From NCBI GenBank assembly GCA_963764975.1, contig CAVXUF010000002.1:467809-531808 (forward strand): a stretch of DNA of 64,000 nt, in the 5' to 3' direction. The notes below the pieces were generated by a model. It was not told the origin of the DNA. It saw only the letters and a list, made by a program, of their open reading frames with translations, and made no database searches. Shown here piece after piece: positions 42,701-58,485 of the stretch; positions within the stretch are counted from its first letter, which is position 1; each line of letters begins with the position of its first letter. A program made the translations under genes and the position numbers. The stretch is from an uncultured Chloroflexia bacterium. Its GTDB lineage: Bacteria > Chloroflexota > Limnocylindria > Limnocylindrales > CSP1-4.

Positions 42701-43511
42701 CGGAGAGCGACAAGCCGAGGAAGCGTGGGCTAGCGGTCAGCATTTCCAGCTCGACGAGGATGTCCTGGTCGCGCTGGAGCTGCTCCGGGACGACCCAGAT
42801 CCCGAGGTCAGGAGCGAGGCTTGGCGCACCGCAGCCGTTCTTGGCACGATCCCGACCAAACTCGTGTCCGCGCTCGGCACGGGAGGTGCGACCGTGGAGC
42901 CCAAGGAACCAGTCACACTGCCCGTCTTCGCGGCCCTTGTCTGGTCGCTCATGGCGTCGGCCGCGCATTCGAAGCACGTAGCCGATGGGCACCTACTCGC
43001 GGGGCAGCTCGGTCAGCTGCTCGACTGGCGCGTAAAACCAGTTCCGACGCCCGACGACCTGTGGCGCTTCTGGCCTGGGGCGATCGAACACCATCGACTG
43101 CCGACTGAGGTCCGGGATTCCGCATGGTCCCGAACCGACAGTGCTGATCCCGCGACCAGAGCTTGGGCAGCGGCGTCGTGGGCAACCTGCCTTCGCGGCT
43201 CCGACGGAAGAAACCAAGTCGAGATCCTTCTCAGTGACACTGACCCGTCTGTGAGCCTGGCGGGACTCGTAGGCATGCAGTCGCCCGACATCGGTGATGC
43301 CCTATGGATCCCAGCAGCTGTTGAGCCTCTGCTTCGGGCCGACATCGACATATGGGAGTTCATCATCGGGCCCGCCGGGATTGACATGTCTCCGGAGTAC
43401 CACCGTGAGCTCGGCCGAACGCTTTTGCGCGCATTGGACACTGCGGCAACGACCGAGAACAACTTCGATCTGCTTTGGTCATTTGCGATCGAGTCCTACT
43501 CCAGCCCTTAG
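39711..43511 (+). CDS. STAND-class (NACHT-like) NTPase with N-terminal helical domain and C-terminal HEAT/ARM-like repeats
   Basis: Walker A LLIVAGPGAGKSTF and Walker B MVLVDGVDEV, followed by about 800 aa of helical repeats including DPDPEVRSEAWRTAAVLG (HEAT-like). The N-terminal about 270 aa are uncharacterised (R-x4-H at RLRQKH). An alternative start at ATG 39765 is possible. Confidence 0.65.
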   Translation: MLAVPSHEGPRFGRIGANMREGTNVRAASGWPDPGREALTILRDQLAPFAEEHLSRAYPDSYRRILGLERRPGATIGQGGRKAVDDPDELLGILLNQQYWSRAFEPAFGGDTNAAYRVKNLCRDIRELRAAFAMHQRDFTPADAWRLVDSTMRLLTLLDLLDQKTKDSLEEIRRELLTASESPDTVRLRQKHLAHVASRFEYVDVGAIAPSVGGAVVRLRLDEIYRSPRFEAISVSMAPVESDDTVVAQPAGTRPPETVGPAEILGERRLLIVAGPGAGKSTFMRSVARDLALGRDVPGIAAALTPILVAASALGEALANGSASSLEDYIETQLAGDAGPALGSDIRAGRAMVLVDGVDEVGAQGAQIRVAQALEHFGAAHPSVRMVVSARPMGYREVRLGADFTAYRLSPLGSGEIEAFIGGWFGAAFPQDEAEANRRRSLGVNALISSSAELRDLAGTPLLLTVICLLAMRGGTLPERRVELFRVATNTLLHQWPRTHGFNLDDYELRLLMGRVAARILERRERLLRASELEGLLENALEDLRGLARPQARQAAASMLRMIEQQTGFLVEQGVDAGEPVYGFIHRNFAEYLAAIDLFERHAAGTITLSDIVFDPRYGEAIPLFFLHVSETGLELSSRLVDEVLSLDSPFRIYACLGERLVVDLLTQGVRVKPMVRERAVLLAIEAAISVKSSYVADMLMTGLHRLATEDRLGPQGDLLMERIDAAPFSRGRRARVVWKLRPEPYTGPDVRWLLDEARAIADVEPGEANMLLKLASAATGSEAAEVDAALDRPAGTRAVLLAFATGPAATDRIPITESQAVGLADAGLLRLSAGDLVAHHGVPPGFDAGPFLLDVADVDLIDVEGLLTLNQEGLPMWVVLLISGLRSWSPAESDEAAARFVQLPEPAEDATGFAPTVLLAIVAAGRIAQLSEAAEMPDWLRRAIDAENADDGLDIALAFHFVATAVSTVTSWGTPLLVGLLTHREGSIRRGVCRRIGERQAEEAWASGQHFQLDEDVLVALELLRDDPDPEVRSEAWRTAAVLGTIPTKLVSALGTGGATVEPKEPVTLPVFAALVWSLMASAAHSKHVADGHLLAGQLGQLLDWRVKPVPTPDDLWRFWPGAIEHHRLPTEVRDSAWSRTDSADPATRAWAAASWATCLRGSDGRNQVEILLSDTDPSVSLAGLVGMQSPDIGDALWIPAAVEPLLRADIDIWEFIIGPAGIDMSPEYHRELGRTLLRALDTAATTENNFDLLWSFAIESYSSP

Positions 43512-43600: not shown

Positions 43601-44908
43601 CTAGCCGAGAATCTCGCCGTCGGCCCTGCCGAAGCTCACCCGCGTCCCGGCCGCCAGCTGGAGGGCCTTACCCGGCTCGACCTCCCGTTGGACCCCGGCA
43701 GTTGAACTCGTCCATGCCTGCTGGGTGAGGTTCCGTAGGCCCCACCTAGAGGGGTCCGACGGGTGGCGGGTGACCTCCGCGACCGGGTTGCGGTAGTCGA
43801 GCCCCGCGGTCTCGTCCAAGTGGTGCGCGTAGAGCTGTGCATCGTGGTTGAGGACGACCAGAGACTTCCCGACCCGGATCCGCATGGGGAGCACTAGCGG
43901 CCGCGCACACTTCCAGCATGACCCCGGCGAGCCGTCCTGCCGGCTCGGGTCGTAGAAGTTCTCGGCGCCGCACGAGCAATAGACGATCGAATCACGGAGT
44001 CGCGCCATCGCCGCGCGCCAAACCGACTCGCGGACCCTGCCGTGGGCGAAGTCCCTCAGCCCGACGGTGAAGGACTGCGTGAACAGGTCGCGCAGGAATG
44101 CCGGGTAGATCGGCCAGAAGGCGATCGCGTTGTCCTGGTACCCGGCCACCGGCTCGTTCGAGGCGTCCTGCGGGTCGAAGATGAACAGCGGGTCCGTGCC
44201 GTACAGGCGAGTCATGGCGGGGAGGTCGAAACAGTGGATGCTCGCCTCCCGGCGGCCCTCAAGCGGGTGGTGGTTGACCAGGAGCAGGAACAGCAGAACA
44301 GCGAGTGAGAATAGGTCCGTCTGGGTCGACGGCAGGGCTTCGCCGCGCACAACCTCGGGGGCCATGAAGCGCGGCGTGCCCAGGACGCCGCCCTTGGCTT
44401 GGTCCAGGCCGACATTGTCGTTGTCGCAGATGAGGACGTCGCCCGTGGCCGGGTCAAAGAAGACGTTCCCATGGGAAATGTCGCGGTAGCAGAGCCCGCG
44501 CGCATGCAGCTGGTAGAAACCGTCGGCGAGAAAGGCTCCAGCCGTGGCGAGGCTGCGGAATGATGGCGACACGCGTCGACTCAGCAGGTCGGGAATGCCC
44601 TTGTAATTGGGCGGGCGAAGGGCCATCAGGTACCCGAAACTCGGGTTCCCCGGAATGGTGGCGAGAGCCACGGGCCACAGGAAGCGCTCGGCTGGGGAGC
44701 CGGCATCAACGAGTGTCTTCAATGCGGCTCGCTGGTCAGCCGTCGCCGTCTGGGCGTAGTACCACTTTAGGGCGAACTTGGATCCACCCAGAGATACCTC
44801 ATAGACCTCCCCCTGGCCTCCGGCGCCCAAAAGGCGCTCCACGCGTCCGGCAGGTCCACCCGGAGAAGCCCGGAACTCCTCGCCCTTGCCGAGAACGCTC
44901 GAAGCCAT
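43601..44908 (-). CDS. Ser/Thr protein kinase with C-terminal FHA-like domain
   Basis: Gly-loop LGAGGQGEVYEV, VAIK-like FALKW, catalytic YRDISHGNVF and DNDNVG (DFG-like). The C-terminal ...VLNHDAQLYAHHLD...ALQLAAGTRVSFGRADGEI resembles an FHA core. The start is set at ATG 44908. Confidence 0.6.
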   Translation of the reverse strand: MASSVLGKGEEFRASPGGPAGRVERLLGAGGQGEVYEVSLGGSKFALKWYYAQTATADQRAALKTLVDAGSPAERFLWPVALATIPGNPSFGYLMALRPPNYKGIPDLLSRRVSPSFRSLATAGAFLADGFYQLHARGLCYRDISHGNVFFDPATGDVLICDNDNVGLDQAKGGVLGTPRFMAPEVVRGEALPSTQTDLFSLAVLLFLLLVNHHPLEGRREASIHCFDLPAMTRLYGTDPLFIFDPQDASNEPVAGYQDNAIAFWPIYPAFLRDLFTQSFTVGLRDFAHGRVRESVWRAAMARLRDSIVYCSCGAENFYDPSRQDGSPGSCWKCARPLVLPMRIRVGKSLVVLNHDAQLYAHHLDETAGLDYRNPVAEVTRHPSDPSRWGLRNLTQQAWTSSTAGVQREVEPGKALQLAAGTRVSFGRADGEILG

Positions 44909-44980: not shown

Positions 44981-45898
44981 TCACAGCGATCGAGCCTCCG
45001 CCTCCTCGGCGGATTGTCGAGTCACCGGCGGCGCGGGGGACCACAATAGTCCCAACGAAATGTCATCACCGCTTCCTGAAGCGGTGAGTTCCTCGAGCCA
45101 GCCGGGCACGCGCGAAACAACTTCGTCGAAACCGTCCTGCTGGATCAGGCTGGCGATGTCGGTTGCGAACCGAAGCATGCCTGTGTCGTCGACAAATGAG
45201 TTGACGAGTCCATCGGTTGACAGGAGGACGAGGGGCATGTGCTCGCGAAGGAGAGCCACCCGGAACAGACTCCAAGCGTCTTTCGAGCAGAGCGATGTGG
45301 TCTCGTTTGCGATGAGTCGGTCATCAGAAGGGATCGGTCTCGAGACCTTCCCGTCTGCTGAGACGCTTACAAGGTCCCCGTCGCCGACCTGCCAGGAGGC
45401 AAGAAACTCGGTTGTCGCGACTGCTGTCACAAGGGTCGTGCCATAGGCCACGTATGGATCGAGGTTTAGCGCATCAACGCTCCCTTCGCGGGTGCGCACT
45501 CCATCAAGCTCGACATCTGTGAATGGATTCGCCGCCAGATCGTCGTCTACCGCCTTTCGCCAGTCGCGGACCAACCGCCTTGGCAGGTCTTCGGTCAACC
45601 TTCCCCGGAGCATCCCTGGGCTGGCCGCCGCGATATCAATCTCGAGCAACTCGCCCGCCAGTGACATTGCGACCTGGTTGGCGAGGCGGGAGCCGTCTGC
45701 GCTACGGAATGACCGGGCGCTGCCGTGGCCGTCCGCCACGGAGAGCGCTACTGAGGAGCCATGCCCCACGCTAGGTAGCCATGCGATGGCATCCTGGTTC
45801 GGCATCCCACTCCGAATGTGAGATGCGCCCCTTACTGAAGCGCCCGATACACGCCAGCCACCACTATTCGGAGCTGCCCTCTCCGTCGGGCTGGCCAT
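44981..45898 (-). CDS. PP2C-family Ser/Thr phosphatase
   Basis: GASVRGASHIRSGMPNQDA..., VADGHGS, and the conserved Asp-rich C-terminal motifs (LSTDGL). The start is set at ATG 45898. Confidence 0.65.
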   Translation of the reverse strand: MASPTERAAPNSGGWRVSGASVRGASHIRSGMPNQDAIAWLPSVGHGSSVALSVADGHGSARSFRSADGSRLANQVAMSLAGELLEIDIAAASPGMLRGRLTEDLPRRLVRDWRKAVDDDLAANPFTDVELDGVRTREGSVDALNLDPYVAYGTTLVTAVATTEFLASWQVGDGDLVSVSADGKVSRPIPSDDRLIANETTSLCSKDAWSLFRVALLREHMPLVLLSTDGLVNSFVDDTGMLRFATDIASLIQQDGFDEVVSRVPGWLEELTASGSGDDISLGLLWSPAPPVTRQSAEEAEARSL

Positions 45899-45902
45899 CC
45901 GA

Positions 45903-46607
45903 TTACCAGACGAAGTCGACGTCTGTGGAGTCATCCGGGGCGACGGGTATTGGGACGTTGCCGCCAACTTGCGCGTCGTCTACGGCGCGGCTGGCAGGCG
46001 AGGATGCCGCCTTGAGCACGGCCGTCGAAGCCCACTTGATGTAAGTCACGAGGGCGGGCGCGTTCTTCGCCAGAAGGGGCTTCAGTTCCCCCGTGCCGAT
46101 GAACTTCGACAAGACGTCCAGATCAGCATCGCCCCCAACGGCGATCCCGATTCGAACGGCTCGCTTGCCCCAAGGCTCAGACATGAGCCGCTGGAGTCCC
46201 CCGCCGAAGTCGTCGGTCGGCTGCCCGTCGCTGATCAGCACGAGGACCGGCGGGAGAGATCTGTCGGGCATCGGTGGGGTCTGGAGTTGCTCAGCAACGA
46301 GTTCCATGGCGTGACCCATGTCCGTGACTCCCCCCGCAGTCACGTTGGTCCACTTGAAGTCCTCGATCGAAATGGGCGTTGCGACATGCCACCTCGCGCC
46401 ATCCGAGAAGGTCACGACCCGCACCAGGACCTCCGCATTGGGGTTCTCCCGGGCTGTGTCCAGCATCGCCGGGATCGCCTCGTGGATCGCGAAGTTGAGC
46501 ATGCCGATCTTCTCGCCATCCATGGAACCTGATGTGTCGAGAATCCAGATGAAGTGCAAGGGCCGAGTTGCAATCGGCCCTCCGGGCAAAGCGCTCATGA
46601 CGCGCAT
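45903..46607 (-). CDS. von Willebrand factor A (vWA) domain protein
   Basis: MIDAS motif FIWILDTSGSMDG...T...D. Confidence 0.75.
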   Translation of the reverse strand: MRVMSALPGGPIATRPLHFIWILDTSGSMDGEKIGMLNFAIHEAIPAMLDTARENPNAEVLVRVVTFSDGARWHVATPISIEDFKWTNVTAGGVTDMGHAMELVAEQLQTPPMPDRSLPPVLVLISDGQPTDDFGGGLQRLMSEPWGKRAVRIGIAVGGDADLDVLSKFIGTGELKPLLAKNAPALVTYIKWASTAVLKAASSPASRAVDDAQVGGNVPIPVAPDDSTDVDFVW

Positions 46608-46744: not shown

Positions 46745-49318
46745 GTGAACGACTCCGTCTCGGCGGTCTTGACCGCGATCCTCGATAGGTACGGCAGGGA
46801 GGTCTCATTCGACCCGCCTCGGGTAGAAGGCCTCCTGCGGGACTTGGCCGGCCAGCACAAGCGCGAGATCGCCGTCCTAGTCGTGGCGTGTCGGGCTGGC
46901 GTCCCCGGGGCACTGATTGGTGCGGCAAGTTCCGAGGAAGCCGACCTGCTCGCAAACCGCCTCGCAGCCCAGCTCGAACGAGACCTTGGATTGGCGCAGG
47001 GTCCATCGGCCTGGGCCGTAACAACATGGGCGGCGGCCCTCGGCGTTGAGGTTGGGCCATCTCTCAAGGCGGCCGCGATAGATCCGTCGACACCGGTGCC
47101 TGCGGTTGACCCCACAGTGGGCTCCACCCCTGCATCCCCCTCCCCCGTGAACTGGACGAACGTACCGCCGCCTGTGCCCGTGCTACTGCCCGACTGGCGA
47201 GCGGCCCTCGCCGCAATCGCCATTCGCTGGCGAACGGCCCTCGACGCAATCGCCGTTCGTTGGCCAGCTTGGAAGGCGAACGCTCGCGTAGCGGCGGGCA
47301 ACGTCCCACGCCGAGGGTGGGCGATCGGCGGTGGGGCGCTCGCTCTTGTCATCGTGGTGCTTGCCCTGTCGAGACCGTCGCCGCCGTCGAGTTCAGCGGC
47401 CAATCTAGCGGTCAGCCCAACCGCTCGACCAACTCCGACGAGCACCATCGTGCCGCCAACGCCGTCCAATGAGCCGTCGTTGACGACCGCCCCAACCGAC
47501 ACGGCCACCGGCTCGACCCCCGCTCCGACGCCGACGCCGTCCGCGGCGGCCTTTTCCGCGTGCCCGACGCCCGGCGCGCCGGGCAAGGCGTTCTCGGTCA
47601 CGACAGGGCTGGCGTACTCGGGCACCTCGGGGATGGGGGCTGTCGAAGTCGTGGTCCTCGGCCCGGGCGGGTCCCGGACTGGCGTGTACACGGAGGTCCA
47701 CAAGGCGAAGGCCGACGTGCTTGGCAAGCCGATCGTCGGCGACCGGGTGGCCAATGCGAACTCCGACTCTAGCGGCGCTGCCCTGATGGAGGTCAAGCCC
47801 GGCACGTACTCAGTGACCACGGACCTGCCTGGCTACAACTGGGGAGACCTGCAGGACGGCAAGGGGCAGAGCGGGATCACCGTCAGGTCCGGACGCAGGA
47901 CCCGCGTGACCATCAGCCTGGGTTCGATCACCTTCGTCCCGACGAAGGTCGACGGCGTCATCACAGGCAAATACGCCGAGATCCACCTGCAGAAGACCGA
48001 CAGCCAGGGCGGCGTCGTCACCGGCGATCGCGTGGGGGACGGCAACACCGACAACACGGGCGCGTTGACGATCCTCGTGACGCCCGGCTCCTACGTCCTC
48101 ACCTCGGACTTCGACGGCCACAACTGGGGCGACCTGTCCGACGGCAAGGGCTGCTCGGGCGTCAGCGTGGGCCCGAGGGACGATACCAAGGTCGAGCTCC
48201 CGCTCGGCCGCCTCCGGGTCGCGATTCCCGCGGGCAAGTACGCCGAGGTACACCTCGGCACAGCGGCGGCGCCGGGTGACCGCGTCGCGTCCGGGAACGC
48301 CGACAACACCGGCTACTGGGCCACCGACCTCGTTCCCGGCGCGTACGTCCTCGTCGTCGACGACCACGCCAGCGAGGTGACCGTCGAGGCCGGCCAGGTC
48401 ACCGACACGGCCACCGGCTCGACCCCCGCTCCGACGCCGACGCCGTCCGCGGCGGCCTTTTCCGCGTGCCCGACGCCCGGCGCGCCGGGCAAGGCGTTCT
48501 CGGTCACGACAGGGCTGGCGTACTCGGGCACCTCGGGGATGGGGGCTGTCGAAGTCGTGGTCCTCGGCCCGGGCGGGTCCCGGACTGGCGTGTACACGGA
48601 GGTCCACAAGGCGAAGGCCGACGTGCTTGGCAAGCCGATCGTCGGCGACCGGGTGGCCAATGCGAACTCCGACTCTAGCGGCGCTGCCCTGATGGAGGTC
48701 AAGCCCGGCACGTACTCAGTGACCACGGACCTGCCTGGCTACAACTGGGGAGACCTGCAGGACGGCAAGGGGCAGAGCGGGATCACCGTCAGGTCCGGAC
48801 GCAGGACCCGCGTGACCATCAGCCTGGGTTCGATCACCTTCGTCCCGACGAAGGTCGACGGCGTCATCACAGGCAAATACGCCGAGATCCACCTGCAGAA
48901 GACCGACAGCCAGGGCGGCGTCGTCACCGGCGATCGCGTGGGGGACGGCAACACCGACAACACGGGCGCGTTGACGATCCTTGTGACGCCCGGCTCCTAC
49001 GTCCTCACCTCGGACTTCGACGGCCACAACTGGGGCGACCTGTCCGACGGCAAGGGCTGCTCGGGCGTCAGCGTGGGCCCGAGGGACGATACCAAGGTCG
49101 AGCTCCCGCTCGGCCGCCTCCGGGTCGCGATTCCCGCGGGCAAGTACGCCGAGGTACACCTCGGCACAGCGGCGGCGCCGGGTGACCGCGTCGCGTCCGG
49201 GAACGCCGACAACACCGGCTACTGGGCCACCGACCTCGTTCCCGGCGCGTACGTCCTCGTCGTCGACGACCACGCCAGCGAGGTGACCGTCGAGGCCGGC
49301 CAGGTCACCGACAGCTAG
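46745..49318 (+). CDS. membrane protein: conserved N-terminal helical module + Pro/Thr linker + TM helix + six carboxypeptidase-regulatory/Ig-like extracellular repeats
   Basis: The N-terminal about 100 aa are shared with three other ORFs. TM helix GWAIGGGALALVIVVLALS. Repeated about 100-aa units have G-V-D...G...TD.TG...V.PG.Y. The gene contains a perfect 906-bp tandem duplication. Confidence 0.55.
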   Translation: MNDSVSAVLTAILDRYGREVSFDPPRVEGLLRDLAGQHKREIAVLVVACRAGVPGALIGAASSEEADLLANRLAAQLERDLGLAQGPSAWAVTTWAAALGVEVGPSLKAAAIDPSTPVPAVDPTVGSTPASPSPVNWTNVPPPVPVLLPDWRAALAAIAIRWRTALDAIAVRWPAWKANARVAAGNVPRRGWAIGGGALALVIVVLALSRPSPPSSSAANLAVSPTARPTPTSTIVPPTPSNEPSLTTAPTDTATGSTPAPTPTPSAAAFSACPTPGAPGKAFSVTTGLAYSGTSGMGAVEVVVLGPGGSRTGVYTEVHKAKADVLGKPIVGDRVANANSDSSGAALMEVKPGTYSVTTDLPGYNWGDLQDGKGQSGITVRSGRRTRVTISLGSITFVPTKVDGVITGKYAEIHLQKTDSQGGVVTGDRVGDGNTDNTGALTILVTPGSYVLTSDFDGHNWGDLSDGKGCSGVSVGPRDDTKVELPLGRLRVAIPAGKYAEVHLGTAAAPGDRVASGNADNTGYWATDLVPGAYVLVVDDHASEVTVEAGQVTDTATGSTPAPTPTPSAAAFSACPTPGAPGKAFSVTTGLAYSGTSGMGAVEVVVLGPGGSRTGVYTEVHKAKADVLGKPIVGDRVANANSDSSGAALMEVKPGTYSVTTDLPGYNWGDLQDGKGQSGITVRSGRRTRVTISLGSITFVPTKVDGVITGKYAEIHLQKTDSQGGVVTGDRVGDGNTDNTGALTILVTPGSYVLTSDFDGHNWGDLSDGKGCSGVSVGPRDDTKVELPLGRLRVAIPAGKYAEVHLGTAAAPGDRVASGNADNTGYWATDLVPGAYVLVVDDHASEVTVEAGQVTDS
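47495..49313. repeat. perfect tandem duplication, 906-bp unit x 2 (302 codons, in frame) inside the 46745..49318 gene
   Basis: Identical ORF translations are offset by exactly 906 bp (for example 47560..47772 = 48466..48678). Copy 1 is 47495-48400 and copy 2 is 48401-49306. Confidence 0.85.
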
Positions 49319-49394
49319 ACAGGTCGGCGACATCCGTCGAGGCCAGGCGACGTCAAAGACACCAGACGCCTCCGATGTCGCATCCTCGGGGACC

Positions 49395-49862
49395 TCAGGG
49401 CGGCAGCCCGATCTTACGGCGCACACGCGCCTCGATCGTCAGTCGTGCCTTCTGGACCTCGTCGGCCGCGTGCTGCAGGTCTGCAATCGCCGAGTTGATT
49501 TCGCCCACAACGGCATTCATCCCCGCGCCGTTCTGCCGACGGGTCCTCGATCTGGGCGACGCCGGCAGAGGCACTCCGAGGCTACCGAGGAGCGCCACGG
49601 AATCGCGCTCGATCTGGTCCAGTTCGCCGAGCAGTCTGGCGACGTCGGCGTCAGTGCGACGCTGCTTGTCCTGGCTGGCTTGCATGGCGGCCCGACTCCG
49701 GGCCTCTGTTGCGTCGCACCGTGAGACGTGCTCATTCTGTGAGGCAGCCTCGGAGCGACCCAGGTCCGCCTCAATTCGTGCCAGCTCCGTCAAGGTCCTC
49801 GCGACAGCGGCACGACCTGAGTAACCCGGGTCACCCGGACGGAGTTTCGGAGCGACCATCAA
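49395..49862 (-). CDS. hypothetical coiled-coil protein
   Basis: 155-aa helical ORF with a 4-nt overlap to the upstream small ORF. Confidence 0.3.
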   Translation of the reverse strand: MMVAPKLRPGDPGYSGRAAVARTLTELARIEADLGRSEAASQNEHVSRCDATEARSRAAMQASQDKQRRTDADVARLLGELDQIERDSVALLGSLGVPLPASPRSRTRRQNGAGMNAVVGEINSAIADLQHAADEVQKARLTIEARVRRKIGLPP

Positions 49863-50074
49863 GGGACCGAGCTGCGGATGCTCTCCAGCACGGCGTCGAG
49901 TTCCCGCATCTGATCGAGGAACGCGGACGCCGCGCGAGTGAGCGGACCCCAGTAGTCGCCTTCGAATTCACTTCGGACCCTGTCGCTCCAGACCTCACCG
50001 GTGAGAGCCCACTCAGCATTCAGCCATTGGCAGGCCTGCTCGAACTCGGCTACAAATGTCGACCCCGCCATCAC
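49859..50074 (-). CDS. WXG100-like small helical protein (W-x-D variant), paralog 3
   Basis: EVWSDRVRSEFEGDYW aligns with the central motif of the other two paralogs. Confidence 0.35.
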   Translation of the reverse strand: MMAGSTFVAEFEQACQWLNAEWALTGEVWSDRVRSEFEGDYWGPLTRAASAFLDQMRELDAVLESIRSSVP

Positions 50075-50346
50075 GGGACGCCCAGATAGGCTTTGAGCGC
50101 TGCGGCCTTGTCCTGAAGGAACGAGATGCCGTCGGCCGACCGAGCCATGTAGCGGCTGATGGCGTCATCGACCTCGCTCCACTCCTCGGAGAACTGTTGG
50201 TAGCGCGAATCCTGCCAGCCTTCGCCCAGCCGTGCGAATTCCGTGTTGCACCGCTCCATGCTCTCGGCTAGTTCCATGTTGAACACGCGGACCTCGCGGA
50301 GGAACGCCTCGAGTAGCTCGAGATCCACATCAATCCCGCCCGACAT
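50071..50346 (-). CDS. WXG100-like small helical protein (W-x-D variant), paralog 2
   Basis: 91 aa from ATG 50346 (MSGGIDVDLELLEAF...). The central motif is GEGWQDSRYQQFSEEW. Confidence 0.4.
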   Translation of the reverse strand: MSGGIDVDLELLEAFLREVRVFNMELAESMERCNTEFARLGEGWQDSRYQQFSEEWSEVDDAISRYMARSADGISFLQDKAAALKAYLGVP

Positions 50347-50456
50347 ACCGCCTCCTCTAACTGTCGTCCCGCGCCTACCGTTCCCACCACCCGACTTGGC
50401 CGGCCTTCTCCTGAAGCTGTGCGCGGGCGCCGGGACACGTTGCATGGAGCTCCTGC

Positions 50457-50807
50457 TCAAATCGACTGGACGACGTGGCGAGGCCATCGGAAGCCGCATA
50501 GGCTCGCCGCTCGAGCGACGTTGCGATATCGAGAATTCGTCTGAGCCTCGTCGCGCGCGGCAACCAGCGCGTAGCAATCCACCTCGCCCCCGCTCGCGAT
50601 TGCTGCCGCCTCGCATTGGCGGAGCTCAAGCTGACGCGCCTCGACCTCTCGCAGCCAGTAGGCGCGCCGCTCTCCCGTGAGTTGGACCACGGCTCCGACT
50701 GCCTCCCGTGCCTCTGCGACGGCACCGGCGGATCGTTCTTCGAACCGGCCGATCGAACCGGCAAGGTCTCGCGCGACTTCGCCACCCGAGATGCGTCCAT
50801 TCCACAT
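50457..50807 (-). CDS. small helical hypothetical protein
   Basis: 117 aa from ATG 50807, lying between WXG-like genes. Confidence 0.3.
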   Translation of the reverse strand: MWNGRISGGEVARDLAGSIGRFEERSAGAVAEAREAVGAVVQLTGERRAYWLREVEARQLELRQCEAAAIASGGEVDCYALVAARDEAQTNSRYRNVARAASLCGFRWPRHVVQSI

Positions 50808-50811
50808 CAGA

Positions 50812-51084
50812 CTATGCCTCGTAGTCTCGGGCCTCGGCGAGGCGCGAACGGAGGTACTCGACATAGCGCTCGGATCGCGCGAGGTAGTGCTCGATAACAG
50901 GGTACGTCTCGTCCCAGTCGCTCAAGAACCGCATCGCCTGCGGATCGCGCCAGGCCGACAGAAGCTCGGCCCACGCCCCGTTCAGGTTCGAGGCACGCGC
51001 CTGAAGATCCGTGTTGTAGGAAACGAGGGTCGAGATGAACGCACTCAGCGCGTCGGGATCCCTCAGGGTCCCCCTTGTGCTCAT
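50812..51084 (-). CDS. WXG100-like small helical protein (W-x-D variant), paralog 1
   Basis: 90 aa. Central GAWAELLSAWRDPQAMRFLSDW, a predicted helix-turn-helix hairpin. Confidence 0.4.
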   Translation of the reverse strand: MSTRGTLRDPDALSAFISTLVSYNTDLQARASNLNGAWAELLSAWRDPQAMRFLSDWDETYPVIEHYLARSERYVEYLRSRLAEARDYEA

Positions 51085-53598
51085 GTCACTTCCCTTTCTG
51101 TAGCTGCTTGACGATTGTCCACCGCGTCAGGCTGTCGTCGCCCTCTGAGCCGCGTTGCGATCCTCGCCCACGTTTCCGAGTCTGGCAGTTCATAAGGCTT
51201 GAACTTCACCGGTCGATGGGCACGGACATCGTCTTTGAAGAGTGCCCGCTCAGCCCCGAGGCGACCGGCTGCCGGGATCTGGAGATAGGCGTTCGACTCA
51301 GAATCTGGCATCGGCAGGGCGACGCGCAACCCGAAGGCCAGGGTGGCCTGCCTCTGGACAAGACGCTCGAGGTTCGTGAAGACGGCCGACCATGCGAATA
51401 TGTGAACGCCAACACCCGGCCCATCGTTCACCACGTCTAGGAATGCCGCGGCAGCTCCGGCGGCCTTGCCAAACCGATCCGTCTCTCGCAAGGCGTCGAG
51501 CCTGTCAAGGCCCGGGATGACCACGATCTTCGAGCGCCCTGCCGCGCCGGTCCTTCGGCTGGCGACAACCTCGGCCAGGTCGCCGAACAGGTCGCCGACT
51601 CCTGACATGGGCAGTGTCGCCACCTCGTGCGGCACAGTCTGGCCGAGCTCGTCGAAGATCTTGCTCCATGCGTGACCTCCCGTGCTCGCCTGCACAATGG
51701 CCAGGTCCAGCTCGTCGACGCCGCCGTCTGCGCACGCGCCGATAAGCGCCGAGCACAAGATCGCATGGGCAAGGCGCTCATCTTGCCCAGCGATCAGAAG
51801 ATTCTCCCTTGGCATCCTGGCGAGAGTCGCGGCGAGGTGTGGGCCGATCTCGATAGGCTCGCCGAGCCAGAGGCGGGCGCCATCGATTCCGTACCCAGAG
51901 TCGCTGGCAAGAGACTTCCCGAGGTCTACGTTCTCGCGAAGTCGCGCGGGGGCGCTGGAGGAGAAGACGTATGGTGCCCAGGATCGCGCGGCGCCGGCCT
52001 TTCCTAGCTGCCGAATCTGAGCGATCCGCTGTCGCCGTTCCTCCGGTTCAAGCATGGCCACCCGCAACATGACATTGCGGGTGGCATCTCCACCGGCGTC
52101 GTTGTACACGGCCTCGCCCGACTTCTCGAGCGACGCAGCAGCCGCGTTGTTGTCGCCCAGGATGAGGCGAGCGTCGGCATCAGCGATGGACAGGGCGATA
52201 CGGAGGCTCACGGAGATTCATGGCCGAGCGGTTGCTGGTGAAACTGCTCGCTGGTGTCTGGCTGCTCAGAAGCACGTGGATACCGAAGCCCCGCCCGCGC
52301 TTGATGAGGTCGGCGAGCTGCGTGGTCGCCGCGGCCGTCAGGGTCGGATCGCCCCCGTCGCCGAACAGGATCTGATACTCGTCGAGGACCAGGAGCACGC
52401 GCGCCATCGGCTGGCCCGTCGAAGCCCGGTAGGCCTTGATCGTCTGTGTCTGAGCCTGCCGGAAGAGCACCCCGCGACGCGCCAGCTCCTGCCCGATCGC
52501 GTTGAGAACGCTCAGACCCTGCTCGGGATCGCTTTCCAGGCCGATGGCGCGGGCGTGCGGGAGCCCTCCGCGCGCATAGTCCTGAAACTCGACTCCTTCC
52601 TTGAAGTCGAGCAGGTAGACCTCCAATTCATCTGGGGAGTAGGCGGCCGCCAACTGGACCAGTAGTACATGAAGGAGGTTGGTCTTGCCCGAACCCGGGA
52701 GACCACCGATGAGTCCGTGGTGCACGAGGCCCGAGCCGATGACGAATTCGTGGGGCTGACCTCTGGCGTCCGTGCCGATGACGGCCCGAAGCCCATCGCT
52801 TGAGTCCGATTTCCACAACTGGTCTGGCGGGATCGCCACCCTCGCAAACGGGACCGTCTCGTCGGCCTGGGCGTCAGCTCCGTGCCCGGCGACGTCAAGC
52901 AGACGATCCAGCACGGCATCGCTTGGCGACTCATCCAGGCGCACGCGATATCGGCCCAAGTCCGGCTCGTTCCAGGAAGCCATCCCTCCACTGTCAACCC
53001 GCAGCGTCCAACATCTTGCCGATGCCGCCGCGAGGTCGAGAGACCGAGGCAGCTGACCACCGGTCTGGTGCACGGTCGCGAGGACGATCGTTCCAGTGCG
53101 AGGCCCATTCTCTATAAGTCGGAACAGCGACGCCGCGGACGTCTCAGAGAAGCCCGCCGGGTAACCGACGACCGCCACAAACTCGTACCTAACGCGCTGC
53201 ACGCCGGGTTTCCGGTTGTGGTCCTCGATCGATGCGCTGTTCAGCAGCTGGTTTTGCGTCACTGCCTCAACGTGGGACAGAAGGCGGCTGAGCTCGGACT
53301 CCAGCTCACGTGCGTCCGAGTAGACCTTGTCGCGACGAACTTGGGTGGGCAGGCGTAGGTAGGTCTTCAAATTCTGGCCAAGGCCCGCGGGGTCAATCAG
53401 GGTCAGCCGGTAACTCCCCGGCGGCACAGTCCCCACGATCCGAGCGAGGACGCTCTTGAGCGACTGGGCGGCGAAATCGGAAGCATTGGCGTCGGCAAGC
53501 CAAAGGATGGGCCGGCTCGCAAACAGCGGCAGGAGCGCCGGTGCAGGCGACCCGACCCGGGGCACATCTATGGCGCCGACGCGGATCGAAGCCGGCAA
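51081..53598 (-). pseudogene. FtsK/SpoIIIE-family (EccCb/EssC-like) ATPase, frameshifted around 52180-52211 and apparently 5-prime truncated
   Basis: ORF 52180..53598 has Walker A GLIGGLPGSGKT and Walker B VLLVLDEYQ. ORF 51081..52211 continues the same domain in another frame (SLRIALSIADADARLILG, equivalent to the FtsK RIAF...DSRTIL region), then a degenerate third domain. The upstream frame is open to about 53874 but has no start other than TTG 53598. Confidence 0.55.
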
Positions 53599-54114
53599 GC
53601 GACCGGGCTGGGAGCCGCCGGACAGCGGCCACTGCGACGACCAGGGTTCTGCGATTGCCCCGAGGAACGCGATGGCCTCCCTTATCGGTCTGACGACGTC
53701 GCGATCGATCAGACCCTGGGCTCGCTGACGCTCCTGATCAACCTCCTGCTTGGCCTGCTGCTCGCTCGCCGCGATCGCTCGTCTTGCCGCATCGCGGCTG
53801 CGGGTCGAATTCCTGCTGAACGTCCCGAGCTGCCGCTTGCCGCTCTGTGGCCGCCTCAGCTCTGGCGAGGTCGATCAGCGTTTGGAGGTGAAGGTATCGA
53901 TCGAGTAGAGCATCGATAGCCCTGCGTTCAGTGCCCATTGCCTCGCGGTGCCCCTCCGCTCGATCGAGGCGTGTCGCACGAGGACAGGATCATCGTCTGT
54001 CCGCCGGTCAGCGCGCGTGCAGCCATCCTACTAAATCGGGGCCGAGTCAATTGCTCTGACCGGCTGGTCCGCGCATCACGCCTGCCCGTCATGCGGCGCC
54101 TGAACCGACCCACG

Positions 54115-55653
54115 TCAGGGCATGCCGTTGTTCGTCCACCACGTCGTGAGGGCCTTGATCGAGTAGCCCTTCTTGGCGTTCAGCACGCCGTACACCAGTC
54201 TCCGCTCATCGGTCCACCGGATGGCTGCGTTCCCATCGAGCTTCTTCAGGTAGCAGATGGCGCGCCCGCCCGCCCAGGCCGTTTCCCCAGTACCACCGGC
54301 AATACAGGAACCCGAGTCCTGTTCGACGCCAGACTGCGCAGCGATTGTCTTTGATCGGAACGCATACCACGCAGATAGGGCTTCGGTGCTTGTGAACTGG
54401 AAGAAGGCGATGTCCTCCAGCTTTGAGGTCGGGTTCGCGCAATCGATCACGGCGACGTCCCCAACAGGGTCGTTGACGCTCTCGTCCTTCGCATGATCGA
54501 CCGTGGGGTCATTGGGGCTACACGCTGCGCGCCATGCCGGTGCCGCCAGCTCAAGGAGAGCCTGCTGTTCGGGCGACATTAGTGGCCCGTCGCCGGACTC
54601 GAGATAGAGCGTGTGGTTCCACCAAAGATCGACAACCGACGCAAGTGATGTGGCCGTCGAGCCGGACGCGGTACCGACGACGCTCGACCGCGAGTCGAGC
54701 CACGACACGCGTGCCGGCTGCCCTGCTGCGCACGAGACGCGCCCGTAGGAATACTCGACTTCGCCGGGCTGCCCGTTCCAGCAGCCAGCCGTGCCGACGG
54801 CCACGCCGGCCGCGGACTGCAGGGTTTCGTAGCGGGCCTGTGCCTTTGTGGCGTCCGGGAAAAGCTCAATGACGAAGGCGACGTGAGACTTCGAGCATCT
54901 GACCGCGACCACAGCACTTTCGGCTACGTCCGTCGCATCGCCAGGCGCTACCGGGACACAATCGGCGGGTCCCATTCGGGCTGACAGGGCGCTCATCAAA
55001 GTCGCGACAAGAGCTGGCGCTCGGGATGAAGAGGGGGTTGCGACGGCCACCTCGCCGGGCGCGCCTGAGGAGGGTGCCGCCGCTGCGCTGCCACCACCCG
55101 AGGACGTAGGCGGAGATCCGTTTGCCGAACTCGGAGCAGCCTGCGGGCGGATCGTGACAGCAGCCAAGATCGCGACTATCGCGATCGATGCGCCGACCGG
55201 GACGACGAGCCGTCGTGACGGCCGGCGTGGTTCATCCGTTGTAGCAGTCGTGGAGTTTGCGCCGGCGACACTCGCGACACGCGCAGCTGAGACATGGGAC
55301 GGCTCCGCGGTCAGCGAGGAGGAGGGCAGCGTACGGGCGTTGAATGACGTGTCGATCCCAAGCGCCGCGGCCCATGCCCCGACGGCCCAGCTGGCGGGAC
55401 CTGGAGCTATGCCCTCAGCATCTTCGAGCCTGCCCGACAGGGCTGGCACAAGGACGTGGATTTCGGCTCCGGAAGCCTCGAGTAAAGCGCGAGGAATGCC
55501 CTCTCGAGCTGCCGCTACCAGGACCGCAACTTCCTTGCGGTGCCCGGTGGCGAGGTCGCGGAGGAGAGCCTCGAGTCGACGAGGATCGTCTGACACCTCT
55601 GTCCCGAAACGCTCCACTAGGATTGCTAGGACATCTGTGGCCGCATCGTTCAC
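54115..55653 (-). CDS. membrane protein: conserved N-terminal helical module + TM helix + duplicated Cys-containing extracellular domain
   Basis: N-terminal MNDAATDVLAILVERFGTEVSDDPRRLEALLRDL... is paralogous to the 46745, 56036 and 57409 genes. TM helix VPVGASIAIVAILAAVTI. Confidence 0.5.
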   Translation of the reverse strand: MNDAATDVLAILVERFGTEVSDDPRRLEALLRDLATGHRKEVAVLVAAAREGIPRALLEASGAEIHVLVPALSGRLEDAEGIAPGPASWAVGAWAAALGIDTSFNARTLPSSSLTAEPSHVSAARVASVAGANSTTATTDEPRRPSRRLVVPVGASIAIVAILAAVTIRPQAAPSSANGSPPTSSGGGSAAAAPSSGAPGEVAVATPSSSRAPALVATLMSALSARMGPADCVPVAPGDATDVAESAVVAVRCSKSHVAFVIELFPDATKAQARYETLQSAAGVAVGTAGCWNGQPGEVEYSYGRVSCAAGQPARVSWLDSRSSVVGTASGSTATSLASVVDLWWNHTLYLESGDGPLMSPEQQALLELAAPAWRAACSPNDPTVDHAKDESVNDPVGDVAVIDCANPTSKLEDIAFFQFTSTEALSAWYAFRSKTIAAQSGVEQDSGSCIAGGTGETAWAGGRAICYLKKLDGNAAIRWTDERRLVYGVLNAKKGYSIKALTTWWTNNGMP

Positions 55654-56035
55654 CCATCCCTCCGGTCAACCGGGCACCCGGCGGGTGCGACGACCGGGGG
55701 CTCCTGCCGCACGGCGATCTGGCAACCCTTCAGGATTGTCCGAGATTATGCCACCGCGGAGTGTCATCGTGACATGGCCTCGTGGCCCGACCGCTAGCCA
55801 CACCACCTGACGTCTTCGGACTGTGACTTGCCGCAGCCGTTGGTTCCATGCGCTCCAATTCAGCTTGGTCCGCGCCGAAGGTAGGAAGGTTCCACCCGCG
55901 TCGACAGCCGCCAACTTGCCCGACATCATCATGCGCAGGGCTGACGCGAAGTCATTCGGCCGGACCTCCAGCAGCAGCCCCGCAGTGATGACTCCATGGG
56001 GGCGGCAGCAGCTTGTGCTCCCTTGGGAATCCGAC

Positions 56036-56848
56036 TCAGGCGGCGATGATCTGCAACGGTACCGCTGTCACTGTGCCCTCTTGGATCAGCCAACCCGACA
56101 ATCCCGGCACAGGCGCCAATGTCGCGAAAATGCGAAGGGCATCGGGGTAATGGTGGAGACTGATGTCCATGGAGCTGGGTCGGGACCAGGTTCCTATCGG
56201 ATCAGTTGAGTAGATGGCCCAGAACACCTCATCCCGATCGTCTATTTCGATCGACGCGGCTAGCAGAATTTCGGGATCAATTTCAAAACGGCTCGGGCTC
56301 ATGGCCCTATTCCTTGACGGGTAGATGCGCGTCGCGATTCCACCCGTCTGGTATGGAGCATTGCCGATGACCAAGCCACACGCGGCGTTGGGGAACGCCT
56401 GTCTTCCCGCATCGAGAATTGCTTGGGCAAGGTGTCCGGGAAGGTAAGCCGCCCCCACGGCAATGGACCTTGAGGCTGTTTGGTCCGAGTGGCCGCCCTT
56501 CGAGTCTGCTGGCGCGGGTGTCAGGCTCGCGGGCCCCCCAACGAAATCTAGGCCGAGGGCAAAGGCCCATGTGTCGATCGCCCAGCTGGCCGGTTGCTCG
56601 GCAACTCCTGCCTCATCCCGCAGACGTCGCGTGAGCCGCGCGATGAGAAGCCGATCTCCCCGGCCACCCGCCATCGTGAATTCCGCCACCACGCCTTGCC
56701 GAACTGCGGTGACGAGAACCGCTATCTCGAGCCGGTCCCTGCCAGACAAATCCCGCAGAATCGCCTCGACGAGGCGCGGGTTATTGACGAAGTCCGTCCC
56801 GCGGTCGACAACGATCCTTCGCAGGACTTCCCGGACCTCGTCGTTCAT
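56036..56848 (-). CDS. conserved N-terminal helical module fused to a JAB/MPN (Mec+/JAMM-like) domain with substituted metal ligands
   Basis: ACGLVIGN...RIYPSRNRAMSPSRFEIDPE...VFWAIYSTDP....PSSMD aligns with the JAMM core (..YHSHP...S-x2-D), with H replaced by S and H replaced by D. The start is ATG 56848 (MNDEVREVL). Confidence 0.5.
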   Translation of the reverse strand: MNDEVREVLRRIVVDRGTDFVNNPRLVEAILRDLSGRDRLEIAVLVTAVRQGVVAEFTMAGGRGDRLLIARLTRRLRDEAGVAEQPASWAIDTWAFALGLDFVGGPASLTPAPADSKGGHSDQTASRSIAVGAAYLPGHLAQAILDAGRQAFPNAACGLVIGNAPYQTGGIATRIYPSRNRAMSPSRFEIDPEILLAASIEIDDRDEVFWAIYSTDPIGTWSRPSSMDISLHHYPDALRIFATLAPVPGLSGWLIQEGTVTAVPLQIIAA

Positions 56849-57083
56849 CTTCGCGATGCCCGAGAGCGAGTCAGTTCGTGCGCCGTCGATGCGAGTTGCC
56901 GAAGTTTGGGGTCGGATCGAGGCATCGGGAGGGCGGCCAACGAGGGGCACCAGGCTGCCAGGCTGTCGACTGGGCAAGATGACGACGAAGATGCCGGTTG
57001 CGGCGTGCTCGGCCTAAAGCCACTCGTTTCGAAACGGGCCACGTCTCGCCCGAGCAAGCGTCGTCGAGGGAAGCACCGCACCG

Positions 57084-57377
57084 TCACTTCTGCTTGATCT
57101 CGCGCTTGATCGGAACGCAATACTGGTCGACGCGAACGGTGTTGCGACGGAAGCCCACAACCTGGAAGCTGATGCGATTCTCGCGAAGTAGCCCTGATTC
57201 ACTCGTATCGCAATCGGCAACCCAGCCATCACGCCTGCGATCGATTAGTTCCTTCTCCACCTCAAGGTGGATGTCACTTGCGGCCAGAAACAGCGCCGTG
57301 GCCGCATCCCGACCCCCGTAGTCGGTCTGCAATCGCTTGAGGATGGTGCCGTATTCCCAGAAGTTCTCCCGTTCCAT
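57084..57377 (-). CDS. small hypothetical protein in a lower-GC patch
   Basis: 97 aa (MERENFWEYGTILKRLQ...). Local GC is noticeably below its surroundings. It sits immediately downstream of 57409..58485. Confidence 0.4.
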   Translation of the reverse strand: MERENFWEYGTILKRLQTDYGGRDAATALFLAASDIHLEVEKELIDRRRDGWVADCDTSESGLLRENRISFQVVGFRRNTVRVDQYCVPIKREIKQK

Positions 57378-57408
57378 CGGCGAACACTCCTACGCCATGT
57401 CTCACAAC

Positions 57409-58485
57409 CTACTTCTTCTTGAAGTCAACCATGCTCGCAAGCGAGCGCCCATACTTTTCGAGCCGCTCGAACCGAGATGCCCCAAGGCGACCGATCAGCA
57501 ACTGGCGCTCTTGATCCGCAATCTGATATCCGCGTCGAACAAGGACGAGCTTGGTCATCAGTGAATCCAGAAGCCGGTCCTCGAGCTTGGCTTCGAGCAT
57601 GGGCGATCCGAGGACTCTCTGGACCTTCGCTGGGCTCATCACGTCGCAGAAGCCGAGCAGCTGTCCCAAGCCGCCCATGCAGTAGGCCGCCAGGTCACCG
57701 GTGATGAGCTCGCCATCGCGGTAACGCGCCCACCGCGAGAGTCTGAAGTACTCGGCGACCATCTCGATGTCGGCGTAGGCAGAAAGCAGCTCGCGGTCTT
57801 CGGCCGTGAGCATCTCCCACGACGATGCGTTGGAGTAAAGGTTGCTGAACAGTCTCTTTGCGATTGCCTCGGCCTCGTCGGTGACCTCGGCGCGCGCGGC
57901 GGTCCGGAGTGTCTCGAACTCGGCCTCGAGGCCAGGCGGATAGGAGGCCGACGGCTTAGCGATCGGCGGTTGAGCGCCCGCAGTCGCGGGTGGCTGGCGC
58001 ATTCCGGCCACGCTTTCCGCGGCTCCAGCAGCCACGCCGCACCGCACGCAGAACCGAGCTCTGGCCGGGAGTGGTGCCCCGCACTGTGAACAGAAGGCTG
58101 CGTCGCCCGATGGACCGCCGGCCGAGGCCGGAGCAGGGGGCGCAGAGGCATCGGCTATCGCGCCGGGACCCGCCGCAGAAACGGGGATGCCCAACGCCTG
58201 ACCCCACGAACGTACCGCCCAGACTGCGGCCTCATTCGTAAGGGCGTAATGCTCCTCGAGGCGACTCGCGAGCGCCGCAACGAAGACGCCGCCGGCATTG
58301 GCCGAGCGCGCCGCGAGGTCGGTCGGGATGCCGGCCCGGGCCGCTGTCACTAGGACGGAGATTTCGCGGCGATGCTCGCTGGCTAGGTCCCGCAGCAGAC
58401 CCTCCAGGCGGGGCGGGTCGTCACCGATCTCACGTCCGTAGCGGGAGACGATGGTGCCGAGGACACCTACGATGGCGGCGTTCAT
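57409..58485 (-). CDS. conserved N-terminal helical module + zinc-ribbon (CSQCG...CVRCG) + uncharacterised C-terminal domain
   Basis: N-terminal MNAAIVGVLGTIVSRYGREIGDDPPRLEGLLRDL... is paralogous. It has two CxxC pairs. Confidence 0.5.
   Translation of the reverse strand: MNAAIVGVLGTIVSRYGREIGDDPPRLEGLLRDLASEHRREISVLVTAARAGIPTDLAARSANAGGVFVAALASRLEEHYALTNEAAVWAVRSWGQALGIPVSAAGPGAIADASAPPAPASAGGPSGDAAFCSQCGAPLPARARFCVRCGVAAGAAESVAGMRQPPATAGAQPPIAKPSASYPPGLEAEFETLRTAARAEVTDEAEAIAKRLFSNLYSNASSWEMLTAEDRELLSAYADIEMVAEYFRLSRWARYRDGELITGDLAAYCMGGLGQLLGFCDVMSPAKVQRVLGSPMLEAKLEDRLLDSLMTKLVLVRRGYQIADQERQLLIGRLGASRFERLEKYGRSLASMVDFKKK

Follow-up and report, generated by a model that had tools for sequence, protein, structure and literature searches.

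A common N-terminal helical module on unrelated payloads, linked to a TerY-P-like vWA, PP2C and kinase gene trio in many bacterial phyla

The window analyzed here, i.e., the whole stretch of 64,000 nucleotides from an uncultured Chloroflexia bacterium, carries three adjacent genes on the minus strand that encode a standalone TerY/YegL-type vWA protein (45903-46607) with an intact MIDAS motif (DTSGS), a PP2C phosphatase (44981-45967) and a Ser/Thr kinase (43601-44908). The vWA gene matches Pfam VWA_2/VWA and its close homologues are labelled 'YegL' by JGI, while the PP2C ORF (PP2C_2, E 1.4e-37), which overlaps the vWA ORF by 65 nt when called from its first TTG, retains the DGHG and C-terminal Asp motifs. 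The kinase (Pkinase, E 1.9e-16) contains a Cys4 Zn-ribbon at 43907-43981 and ends in a conserved beta-rich domain, for which a PDB profile search returned no FHA-like relative; its residues C311/C313/C331/C334 and the catalytic D143/N148/D162 are invariant in 14 orthologues. By these motifs, the trio is catalytically intact and of the TerY-P type. PADLOC gave no match for the vWA or PP2C protein and only generic matches for the kinase, in a library whose TerY-P content is uncertain.

Near the trio lie four ORFs (A to D) that begin with one and the same module of ~100 aa, followed by four unrelated C-terminal parts that are as first described. Protein A (46745-49318, plus strand), the gene of which is divergent from the vWA gene with 137 bp between the two, consists of the N-module (46745-47044), a Pro-rich linker, a predicted transmembrane (TM) segment (47318-47371; aa 192-209) and six Ig/CarboxypepD_reg-like repeats (Pfam E 3.3e-12), i.e., three repeats doubled to six by a 906-bp tandem duplication (47495-49306, plus strand; copies 47495-48400 and 48401-49306) with a single mismatch. 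Protein B (54115-55653, minus strand) has its N-module at 55354-55653, a TM segment at 55150-55209 (aa 149-168) and a duplicated four-Cys extracytoplasmic domain, the two halves of which align at E 3e-8 with their Cys residues in register. Both A and B are predicted from sequence to have an N-in, single-TM, ectodomain topology, and the positive-inside rule together with the lack of a signal peptide would place their modules in the cytoplasm. The other two proteins are soluble. Protein C (56036-56848, minus strand; N-module 56549-56848), the longest ORF of which starts at 56977 with the module beginning at the ATG at 56848, carries a Prok-JAB-like domain that matches Pfam below the cutoff (E 3.6e-4, vs. 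8e-11 for its homologue P0101); the preliminary description had called this domain inactivated, and indeed it lacks the JAMM motif's catalytic Glu and its two His residues. Protein D (57409-58485, minus strand; N-module 58186-58485) has a Zn-ribbon (58036-58095; Pfam E 4.5e-6) and a helical C-terminal region. The module start codons are GTG at 46745 and 55653, and ATG at 56848 and 58485.

That these four ORFs share a homologous N-terminal module, as had been claimed, is confirmed by both alignment and HMM. The modules show 33-50% pairwise identity (41-47% over ~100 aa when aligned against the first sequence, with 27 invariant columns), and a six-frame scan of the window with the module HMM matched exactly these four ORFs (E 1e-47 to 1e-48), with the best remaining match at E 0.38; within the window, no copy was detected on the kinase, PP2C, vWA, STAND or FtsK genes. 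It also holds in Pfam, NCBIfam, PADLOC and PDB that the module matches no named family. Scans of proteins A to D against Pfam, which includes models of the effector-associated domains (EADs), NCBIfam and PADLOC returned nothing over the module (in Pfam, nothing at E<=1), and PDB profile searches with 12- and 35-sequence module profiles gave no significant match (all at E>0.3, in part over HTH regions).

Other neighbors in the window include a small WXG100-like protein (50071-50346, minus strand) and a split FtsK/EssC-like ATPase, encoded by the ORFs 52180-53598 and 51081-52211 (minus strand), all of which are placed between the module genes and are possibly associated with them, and a HEPN-NACHT STAND gene 3 kb away. 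A 1295-aa neighbor (59290-63177) was compared with the long module proteins as a payload that might have become separated from them, and showed no similarity.

Beyond the window, an exhaustive search (E<=1e-3) recovered a module family of 5,231 clusters at 50% identity, compared to which the 11 relatives found by a word-indexed homology search were misleadingly sparse; no relatives were found among 2.9 million viral contigs in IMG/VR. Of the 150 best module proteins, 149 have the module at their N-terminus and 22 have it as two tandem copies. The non-module remainders, nearly all C-terminal, amount to 146 segments that fall into 87 unrelated clusters, and no Pfam family is common to the 123 members assessed. 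Payloads include WD40, TPR/HEAT-like, beta-helix, FGE-sulfatase, DUF1566, inactive JAB, HSP70, and single- or multi-TM regions, with at least one TM segment following the module in about half of the family and several in 27/147. The module is predicted to fold confidently into seven helices (pLDDT 93.4, pTM 0.86), and the AF2 model of a natural tandem-module protein (pTM 0.84 over 251 aa) would imply confident packing of one module against another. These observations support the module as a genuine common N-terminal domain on unrelated payloads.

The check proposed at the outset, i.e., whether the module is linked to vWA, PP2C and kinase genes in other genomes, revealed tight linkage. Specifically, the trio lies beside module genes in 22 of 27 genome loci and in 5 of 7 further annotated contexts. 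In metagenome loci, which come from a different sub-branch, a triad gene was present in 19/21 loci of at least 8 kb and in 26/30 of at least 5 kb, with all three genes in 14 of the 21 loci of at least 8 kb. The module is linked to the trio across many bacterial phyla, in a set of over a hundred loci. One Methylomonas plasmid, from a cultured strain, encodes kinase-vWA-PP2C followed by five module genes; more generally, there are one to five module proteins per trio, and in a recurrent five-gene form vWA-PP2C is flanked by a tail-anchored short module protein paired with a soluble module protein of the beta-helix type. Overlap of PP2C and module genes is common. The module, vWA, PP2C and kinase families are the only ones that recur across loci; no further recurrent neighbor family was found, and the flanks are heterogeneous. 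Some module genes lie apart from any trio, such as those of loci L011, L012 and L088 and that of P0101, for which the 11.4-kb stretch from the contig end 2.5 kb upstream to 8 kb downstream has none. No triad ORF of the related genome and metagenome loci carries a module copy, and neither the 150 best module proteins nor the 120 closest vWA homologues include a fusion of the module to vWA, kinase or PP2C; the long vWA homologues are tandem vWA duplications. The window kinase shares 55-71% identity with most of the aligned module-linked kinases of other phyla, and 39-45% with those of Magnetococcales and three other lineages. Kinases that are nearly identical turn up in different phyla, implying horizontal transfer, and the cassette is probably horizontally mobile.

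Based on these results, we favor, at a probability of roughly one half, the reading of the module as a docking or adaptor domain by which one to five variable proteins are joined to the trio, these proteins being the variable layer of a TerY-P-like cassette. The cassette would comprise a TerY/YegL-type vWA protein, PP2C, a soluble kinase (with its Zn-ribbon and beta-rich domain) and one to five 'module-X' proteins, and the module, an apparently autonomously folding, cytoplasmic, all-alpha N-terminal domain, would be the hallmark of this variable fourth component. It would bring interchangeable X parts to the trio, from membrane-anchored extracytoplasmic binders and cytoplasmic ones of the repeat or lectin-like type to HSP70, a Zn-ribbon domain and an inactive JAB. 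We infer that the module probably docks onto the vWA protein and probably also pairs with other modules, in which case the kinase/PP2C pair could read out, or gate, what the module proteins bind, and one trio would serve an array of module-tagged sensors or effectors as its specificity-determining layer. Since the payloads are mostly binding and repeat domains, not toxic enzymes, the term 'effector-associated' perhaps has the wrong polarity, and the module proteins may be sensors rather than effectors. Several observations count against the docking reading, namely the module genes found apart from any trio, the lack of module-trio fusions in the protein sets above, the missing PADLOC matches for vWA and PP2C, the Pro-rich linker without an obvious phospho-acceptor signature and, as to a role in defence, the mixed neighbors of the cassette.

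An alternative reading is that the module proteins serve mainly as substrates of the kinase/PP2C pair or as effectors under its phospho-regulation, with the module as a phospho-switch and payloads that execute a response rather than sense. The TM segments behind the module in much of the family, the existence of enzymatic or chaperone payloads (JAB and HSP70) and the frequent PP2C-module gene overlaps are consistent with such a role, but no invariant Ser/Thr occurs inside the module in our alignments, the Pro-rich linker that follows it shows a modest Ser and no Thr excess, so that a phospho-acceptor signature is not obvious, and the payloads are mostly non-catalytic binders (WD40, TPR, beta-helix, FGE-sulfatase, DUF1566), the JAB itself being inactive. 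We consider this reading unlikely. Alternatively, the same docking could serve ordinary environmental signaling, as a 'split receptor kinase' with module-TM-ectodomain receptors for a soluble kinase, rather than conflict or defence. The topology of A and B, the absence of viral relatives and the mostly housekeeping or mixed flanks of other loci all point this way; indeed, because the genes that flank the cassette vary and are often housekeeping ones, a defence role is not established. Nonetheless, the extreme turnover of payloads, the arrays of three to five paralogues, the implied horizontal transfer of the kinases, the phage protection conferred by related TerY-P modules (PMC10542128) and the presence, in this window and several other loci, of defence genes (HEPN-NACHT, NERD/UvrD, IetA-like, AbiEii, PIN, AAA_15/21+HNH) argue against it, and we regard it as quite improbable.

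The reading that follows from the preliminary description is a homotypic adaptor, effector-associated or Death-like, through which effectors would be coupled to the neighboring STAND NTPase. A short helical N-domain on many payloads, multiple paralogues, the STAND gene nearby and the homotypic packing suggested by the tandem-module model fit this reading, but none of the more than 100 other loci links the module to a STAND gene; the reading is largely refuted, and we give it little credence. Even less probable is a secretion or targeting domain akin to LXG/WXG N-domains and recognized by the adjacent FtsK/EssC-like ATPase. The genes in question do lie among the module genes of the window, and TerY-P clusters together with WxG+FtsK have been reported (PMC4978471), but FtsK and WXG genes were absent from all other module loci searched (27 genome, 80 metagenome and 11 exact-protein look-up loci, and the Methylomonas plasmid), and the FtsK-like gene of the window is split; furthermore, the predicted N-in topology of A and B is incompatible with export of the N-terminus. 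Finally, a helical N-terminal domain followed by a TM segment and an ectodomain, as in A and B, is also the layout expected of an anti-sigma-factor-like or other housekeeping domain, which had been named as the finding that would overturn the first reading. No sigma factor or other family recurs besides the trio, however, and no anti-sigma family of Pfam or NCBIfam matches, so that genomic context refutes this last reading and leaves it a negligible probability.

If the module is indeed a docking domain, a further and more tentative step, which we consider possible but rather doubtful, is that a swappable sensor array on one core represents a horizontally mobile, innate-immune-like 'split receptor kinase' found in many phyla. 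Such a system would combine TM receptors bearing extracytoplasmic lectin- or Ig-like domains with cytoplasmic repeat proteins, and would explain how TerY-P-type triads gain specificity. These triads are widespread and a related form is antiphage; the module would provide a handle on what they sense and act on. A family of >5,000 clusters that is missing from Pfam and NCBIfam would also help predict specificity-carrying proteins, and it suggests candidate interactions of the module with the vWA protein, with another module, and with the kinase C-terminal domain. The Methylomonas cassette, being a complete example in a cultured strain, makes experiments feasible.

Among known systems, the closest likeness appears to be to the TerY-P triad, described as vWA, PP2C and a Ser/Thr kinase with a C-terminal Zn-ribbon (Anantharaman, Iyer & Aravind 2012, via PMC10542128, PMC4978471), an OB-fold variant of which is an antiphage system (Gao et al. 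2020, via PMC10542128). The three adjacent genes are the same, i.e., a TerY/YegL-type vWA with MIDAS, an active-type PP2C and a kinase with a Cys4 Zn-ribbon, and the window has WXG-like and FtsK-like genes nearby, as do some TerY-P clusters. The differences are the variable fourth component with the N-module, nearly always present here in one to five copies, and the vWA and PP2C proteins left unmatched by PADLOC models (with the above caveat on library content). We found no description of such a fourth component in TerY-P literature that did not include the original 2012 account, and an earlier mention is thus possible. An actinobacterial theme in which a kinase (Zn-ribbon plus beta-rich domain or TM), PP2C and a standalone vWA lie near GAP1-N2 (Kaur et al. 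2020) has the same kinase architecture and PP2C/vWA partners, but the GAP1 GTPase is absent here and in related loci, and module proteins are unmentioned there.

Two further systems resemble the module itself. The EADs (EAD1-11) work by homotypic pairing of a copy on a core component with copies on effectors (Kaur et al. 2020, PMC7159879). What stands of the architecture proposed in the preliminary description is the short adaptor module on many payloads, with several paralogues per locus and, as in EAD and bacterial Death-like systems, vWA-containing cores; what does not is a copy on the core, since the module is absent from every core component scanned in the window and the related loci and the defining feature of EADs is hence lacking, nor is there a Pfam EAD match. 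Membership in the Death-like superfamily was rejected, given that the module does not show the six-helix Death fold and had no Death-like fold match. The vWA-L domain, the linker of MoxR-vWA ternary systems (Kaur et al. 2021, PMC8195603), is a helical domain either fused to vWA or N-terminal on separate effectors near a standalone vWA gene, e.g., 'vWA-L+TM+CASPASE <- VWA' (PMC8195603, supplement file 1). The likeness, a published precedent for the logic of the docking reading, is one of layout, namely an alpha-helical domain that precedes variable domains and is encoded beside a standalone vWA gene; on the other hand, the MoxR AAA+ and VMAP/iSTAND/TERNS3 components of those systems are absent here, and no MoxR-type family occurs among the neighbors at module loci. 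Membership of the module in the vWA-L or EAD family is therefore not shown; rather, it is in principle that the arrangement described here appears to resemble both.

The N-terminal ~100 residues of four proteins of the window, A (46745..49318, +), B (54115..55653, -), C (56036..56848, -) and D (57409..58485, -), form a common helical module, and the translations of the four ORFs match what the preliminary description had said of them. Over this region, A-D show 41-47% identity to the first sequence of the alignment, with 27 invariant columns that include the LLRDL, E41, VLV and WA..W..ALG positions. An HMM of the module, run against the six-frame translation of the whole window, recovered exactly four copies (E 1e-47 to 1e-48), the next-best match having an E of 0.38; that is, the similarity of the four copies is far beyond chance. 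No Pfam, NCBIfam or PADLOC model matched the module in scans of the window proteins, and no Pfam family over the module was common to any of 123 homologues.

A word-indexed search returned 11 matches only, hinting at a rare family, an impression corrected when 1.84 billion cluster representatives were scanned exhaustively with HMMER: at E<=1e-3 the family comprises 5,231 clusters, of which 2,708 remain at E<=1e-10. Among the 150 best-scoring proteins, the module is N-terminal in 149 and doubled in tandem in 22; a Pro-rich linker comes next (14% Pro vs. 6% elsewhere in the protein), and the non-module remainders (146 segments) fall into 87 unrelated clusters. About half of the best module proteins have at least one predicted TM segment downstream of the module. 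The payloads of the homologues include WD40, FGE-sulfatase, beta-helix/NosD, TPR, HEAT-like repeats, DUF1566/Lcl_C, Prok-JAB, FG-GAP and HSP70, and module-only proteins of 117-175 aa exist as well. One locus (L101:7983-10292) encodes a fusion of a module and a full-length HSP70 (Pfam E 3e-136) beside vWA-PP2C-kinase genes, and the same arrangement, with this chaperone as payload, was found at a second locus (L103).

The earlier account of the downstream parts of A-D (Ig-like repeats, Cys domain, inactive JAB and Zn-ribbon) holds. Protein A carries a TM segment followed by Ig/CarboxypepD_reg-like extracellular repeats, six in number because a 906-bp tandem duplication (47495-48400 / 48401-49306, sole mismatch 48076 vs. 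48982) has doubled a set of three; the duplication arose very recently unless it is an artefact of assembly. The cytoplasmic linker of A also contains a 33-bp tandem repeat (47194-47264, 2.2 copies, 89% matches) encoding a repeated WR(T/A)AL(D/A)AIA(I/V)RW. In protein B, a TM segment is accompanied by a Cys-containing domain that is duplicated internally, and D has a Zn-ribbon and a helical region. The payload of C is a JAB-like domain whose relatives exceed the Pfam threshold (e.g., the homologue P0101, E 8e-11) and in which substitutions have removed the Glu and the two His of the JAMM motif. A 97-aa ORF (57084-57377, -) lies between D and C and was predicted as a gene on an identical Logan contig (L001) too. 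Since basic residues precede the TM segments and there is no signal peptide, the module of the window proteins is predicted to be cytoplasmic. Non-catalytic binding or repeat domains and ectodomains make up the overwhelming majority of payloads across the family, and the JAB domain is inactive; the payloads seem closer to sensors or receptors than to toxins.

The decisive result for the module is its genomic context. In the window, gene A is divergent from a vWA gene (45903..46607, -), which is followed by PP2C (44981..45967, -) and Ser/Thr kinase (43601..44908, -) genes. When 27 loci from species-representative genomes of Acidobacteriota, Chloroflexota, Riflebacteria, Magnetococcales, other Proteobacteria and Actinomycetota were searched with the window proteins, homologues of all three were found directly beside a module gene in 22 (kinase up to 620 bits, PP2C 200-320, vWA ~290); at least three of the five loci without the triad are truncated contigs. 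An independent sample of 80 metagenome loci, representing a different sub-branch of the module (consensus DPRRCEALLRDLCG), gave a similar picture: at least one triad gene was present in 19 of the 21 loci of at least 8 kb (all three in 14) and in 26/30 of those of at least 5 kb. Exact protein look-up added seven further contexts, five of them with the triad. Finally, all-vs-all clustering of ORFs from the right half of the window and from the first 30 related loci (genome loci and the earliest exact look-ups) yielded only module proteins, PP2C, kinase and vWA as recurrent families, the other neighbours being a heterogeneous mix of housekeeping, mobile and defence genes. PrsW-family protease genes, one of them fused to FHA, adjoin module/triad genes in two unrelated contigs (L036:2485-3786 and L038:9331-10695) and may represent an occasional extra component.

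The window layout, with one triad and four module genes, is typical, given that arrays of module genes are common at other loci (e.g., five in L079, with L041 and L106 having three apiece). In Methylomonas sp. AM2-LC, a complete plasmid (CP157007.1) carries kinase-vWA-PP2C followed by five consecutive module genes (L120:13499-20943); the record is without annotation and the strain is cultured, and this cassette would make a convenient experimental model. A five-gene form recurs at 12 loci and consists, in this order, of a short, tail-anchored module protein (single C-terminal TM), vWA, PP2C, a long module protein that is a soluble beta-helix protein, and a kinase, the last seen downstream in 9 of the 12, i.e., wherever the contig reaches that far.

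The window is GC-rich, with a GC content of ~70% up to 20 kb and of 62-69% (mostly 63-66%) beyond, and the drop from ~20 kb onward is consistent with an acquired island. This part includes an EVE-domain ORF (22393-23589, -), a Tn7-like transposition set of TniQ (27662-29167, -), a 383-aa ORF (29112-30263, -) and a Mu/TnsB-like transposase (30260-33193, -), and then an HTH gene (33706-34383, +). Defence-type neighbours follow, namely an IetA-like AAA ATPase (34857-36236) with an accompanying ORF (34039-34860), a NERD+UvrD-like helicase (36899-39112; PADLOC C3a187, 1e-53) and a HEPN_Swt1-NACHT-HEAT STAND gene (39711-43511); these neighbours (34039-43511) do not co-occur with the module at the other loci searched. 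An FtsK/EssC-like ATPase gene (51081-53598, -) appears to be split, with ORF 52180-53598 stopping within the ATPase domain and ORF 51081-52211 carrying on FtsK-like sequence in a different frame, the cause being a frameshift, pseudogene formation or a sequencing error. Downstream of it lies a WXG100-like protein of ~91 aa (50071-50346, -; Pfam E 0.003, below cutoff). A 1295-aa ORF (59290-63177, +) has good coding statistics and no Pfam/NCBIfam match, and it does not resemble P0160 or P0074, which are long module proteins. Homologues of the window STAND, FtsK-like and WXG-like genes were absent from every other module locus searched, and those of the UvrD-like, AAA, 376-aa and 1295-aa genes from the 27 genome loci; the suggested link of the module to the STAND gene thus finds no counterpart elsewhere.

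The cassette's only variable proteins have no conserved part other than the module, and the module folds alone; from this, we infer that it is a docking domain coupling variable proteins to the triad. The vWA protein would be its likely partner, by analogy with the architectural logic of MoxR-vWA ternary systems, in which an alpha-helical vWA-L domain is fused after vWA or is N-terminal on separate effectors (PMC8195603); the latter are encoded beside a standalone vWA, including 'vWA-L+TM+CASPASE <- VWA' (PMC8195603). Among the 150 best module proteins and 120 vWA homologues, none fuses the module to a triad protein. A natural tandem-module protein was predicted with a pTM of 0.84 over 251 residues, despite a 20-residue linker, indicating confident packing of module on module. 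This model and the occurrence of short and long module proteins as pairs suggest that modules may associate mutually, e.g., tethering a soluble partner to a membrane-anchored one.

What such a docking system is for may be read in two ways. The cassette may be a defence or conflict system, for which payload turnover, arrays of paralogues, transfer across phyla and the presence of defence genes in the window and at some other loci would speak; however, the flanks are mixed and the PADLOC models do not hit its vWA or PP2C, which calls for caution. Alternatively, it may be a general "split receptor kinase". The initial interpretation is therefore only partly retained: an adaptor-like domain with diverse payloads and linkage to vWA, PP2C and kinase stands, whereas the STAND link and a recognized effector-associated (EAD) or Death-like domain do not, and the module may tag sensors rather than effectors.

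Regarding known systems, the module fails the Death-fold test, and it does not show the defining EAD feature, a copy on a core component. It shares the architectural feature of vWA-L, but the MoxR context of that family is absent. The closer match concerns the triad. In TerY-P triads, a TerY-like vWA is combined with a PP2C phosphatase and a Ser/Thr kinase that bears a zinc ribbon at its C-terminus; such triads are predicted to be a phosphorylation switch, an OB-fold variant being an antiphage system (PMC10542128). The window triad shares this make-up (PMC10542128): its vWA has an intact MIDAS motif (DTSGS) and close homologues labelled YegL, i.e., TerY-type; its PP2C keeps the metal-binding motifs; and its kinase keeps the catalytic Asp/Asn and DxD and features an invariant Cys4 Zn-ribbon together with, at its C-terminus, a conserved beta-rich domain. 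Some triad-type vWA proteins of ~400 aa (P0162-P0172) are tandem vWA duplications, not fusions to other domains. The window kinase is 55-71% identical to most aligned module-linked kinases of other phyla, which argues for horizontal spread, and 39-45% identical to those of Magnetococcales and three other lineages. The triad also fits the actinobacterial theme of kinase, PP2C and standalone vWA (PMC7159879), and the WXG-like and split FtsK/EssC-like genes of the window agree with TerY-P clusters, which can contain WxG and FtsK genes (PMC4978471). The extending component seems new, although the original 2012 TerY-P description might already mention it. The cassette has the tested defining features of a TerY-P-type triad, and we classify it as such a triad extended by arrays of proteins tagged with an unnamed domain.
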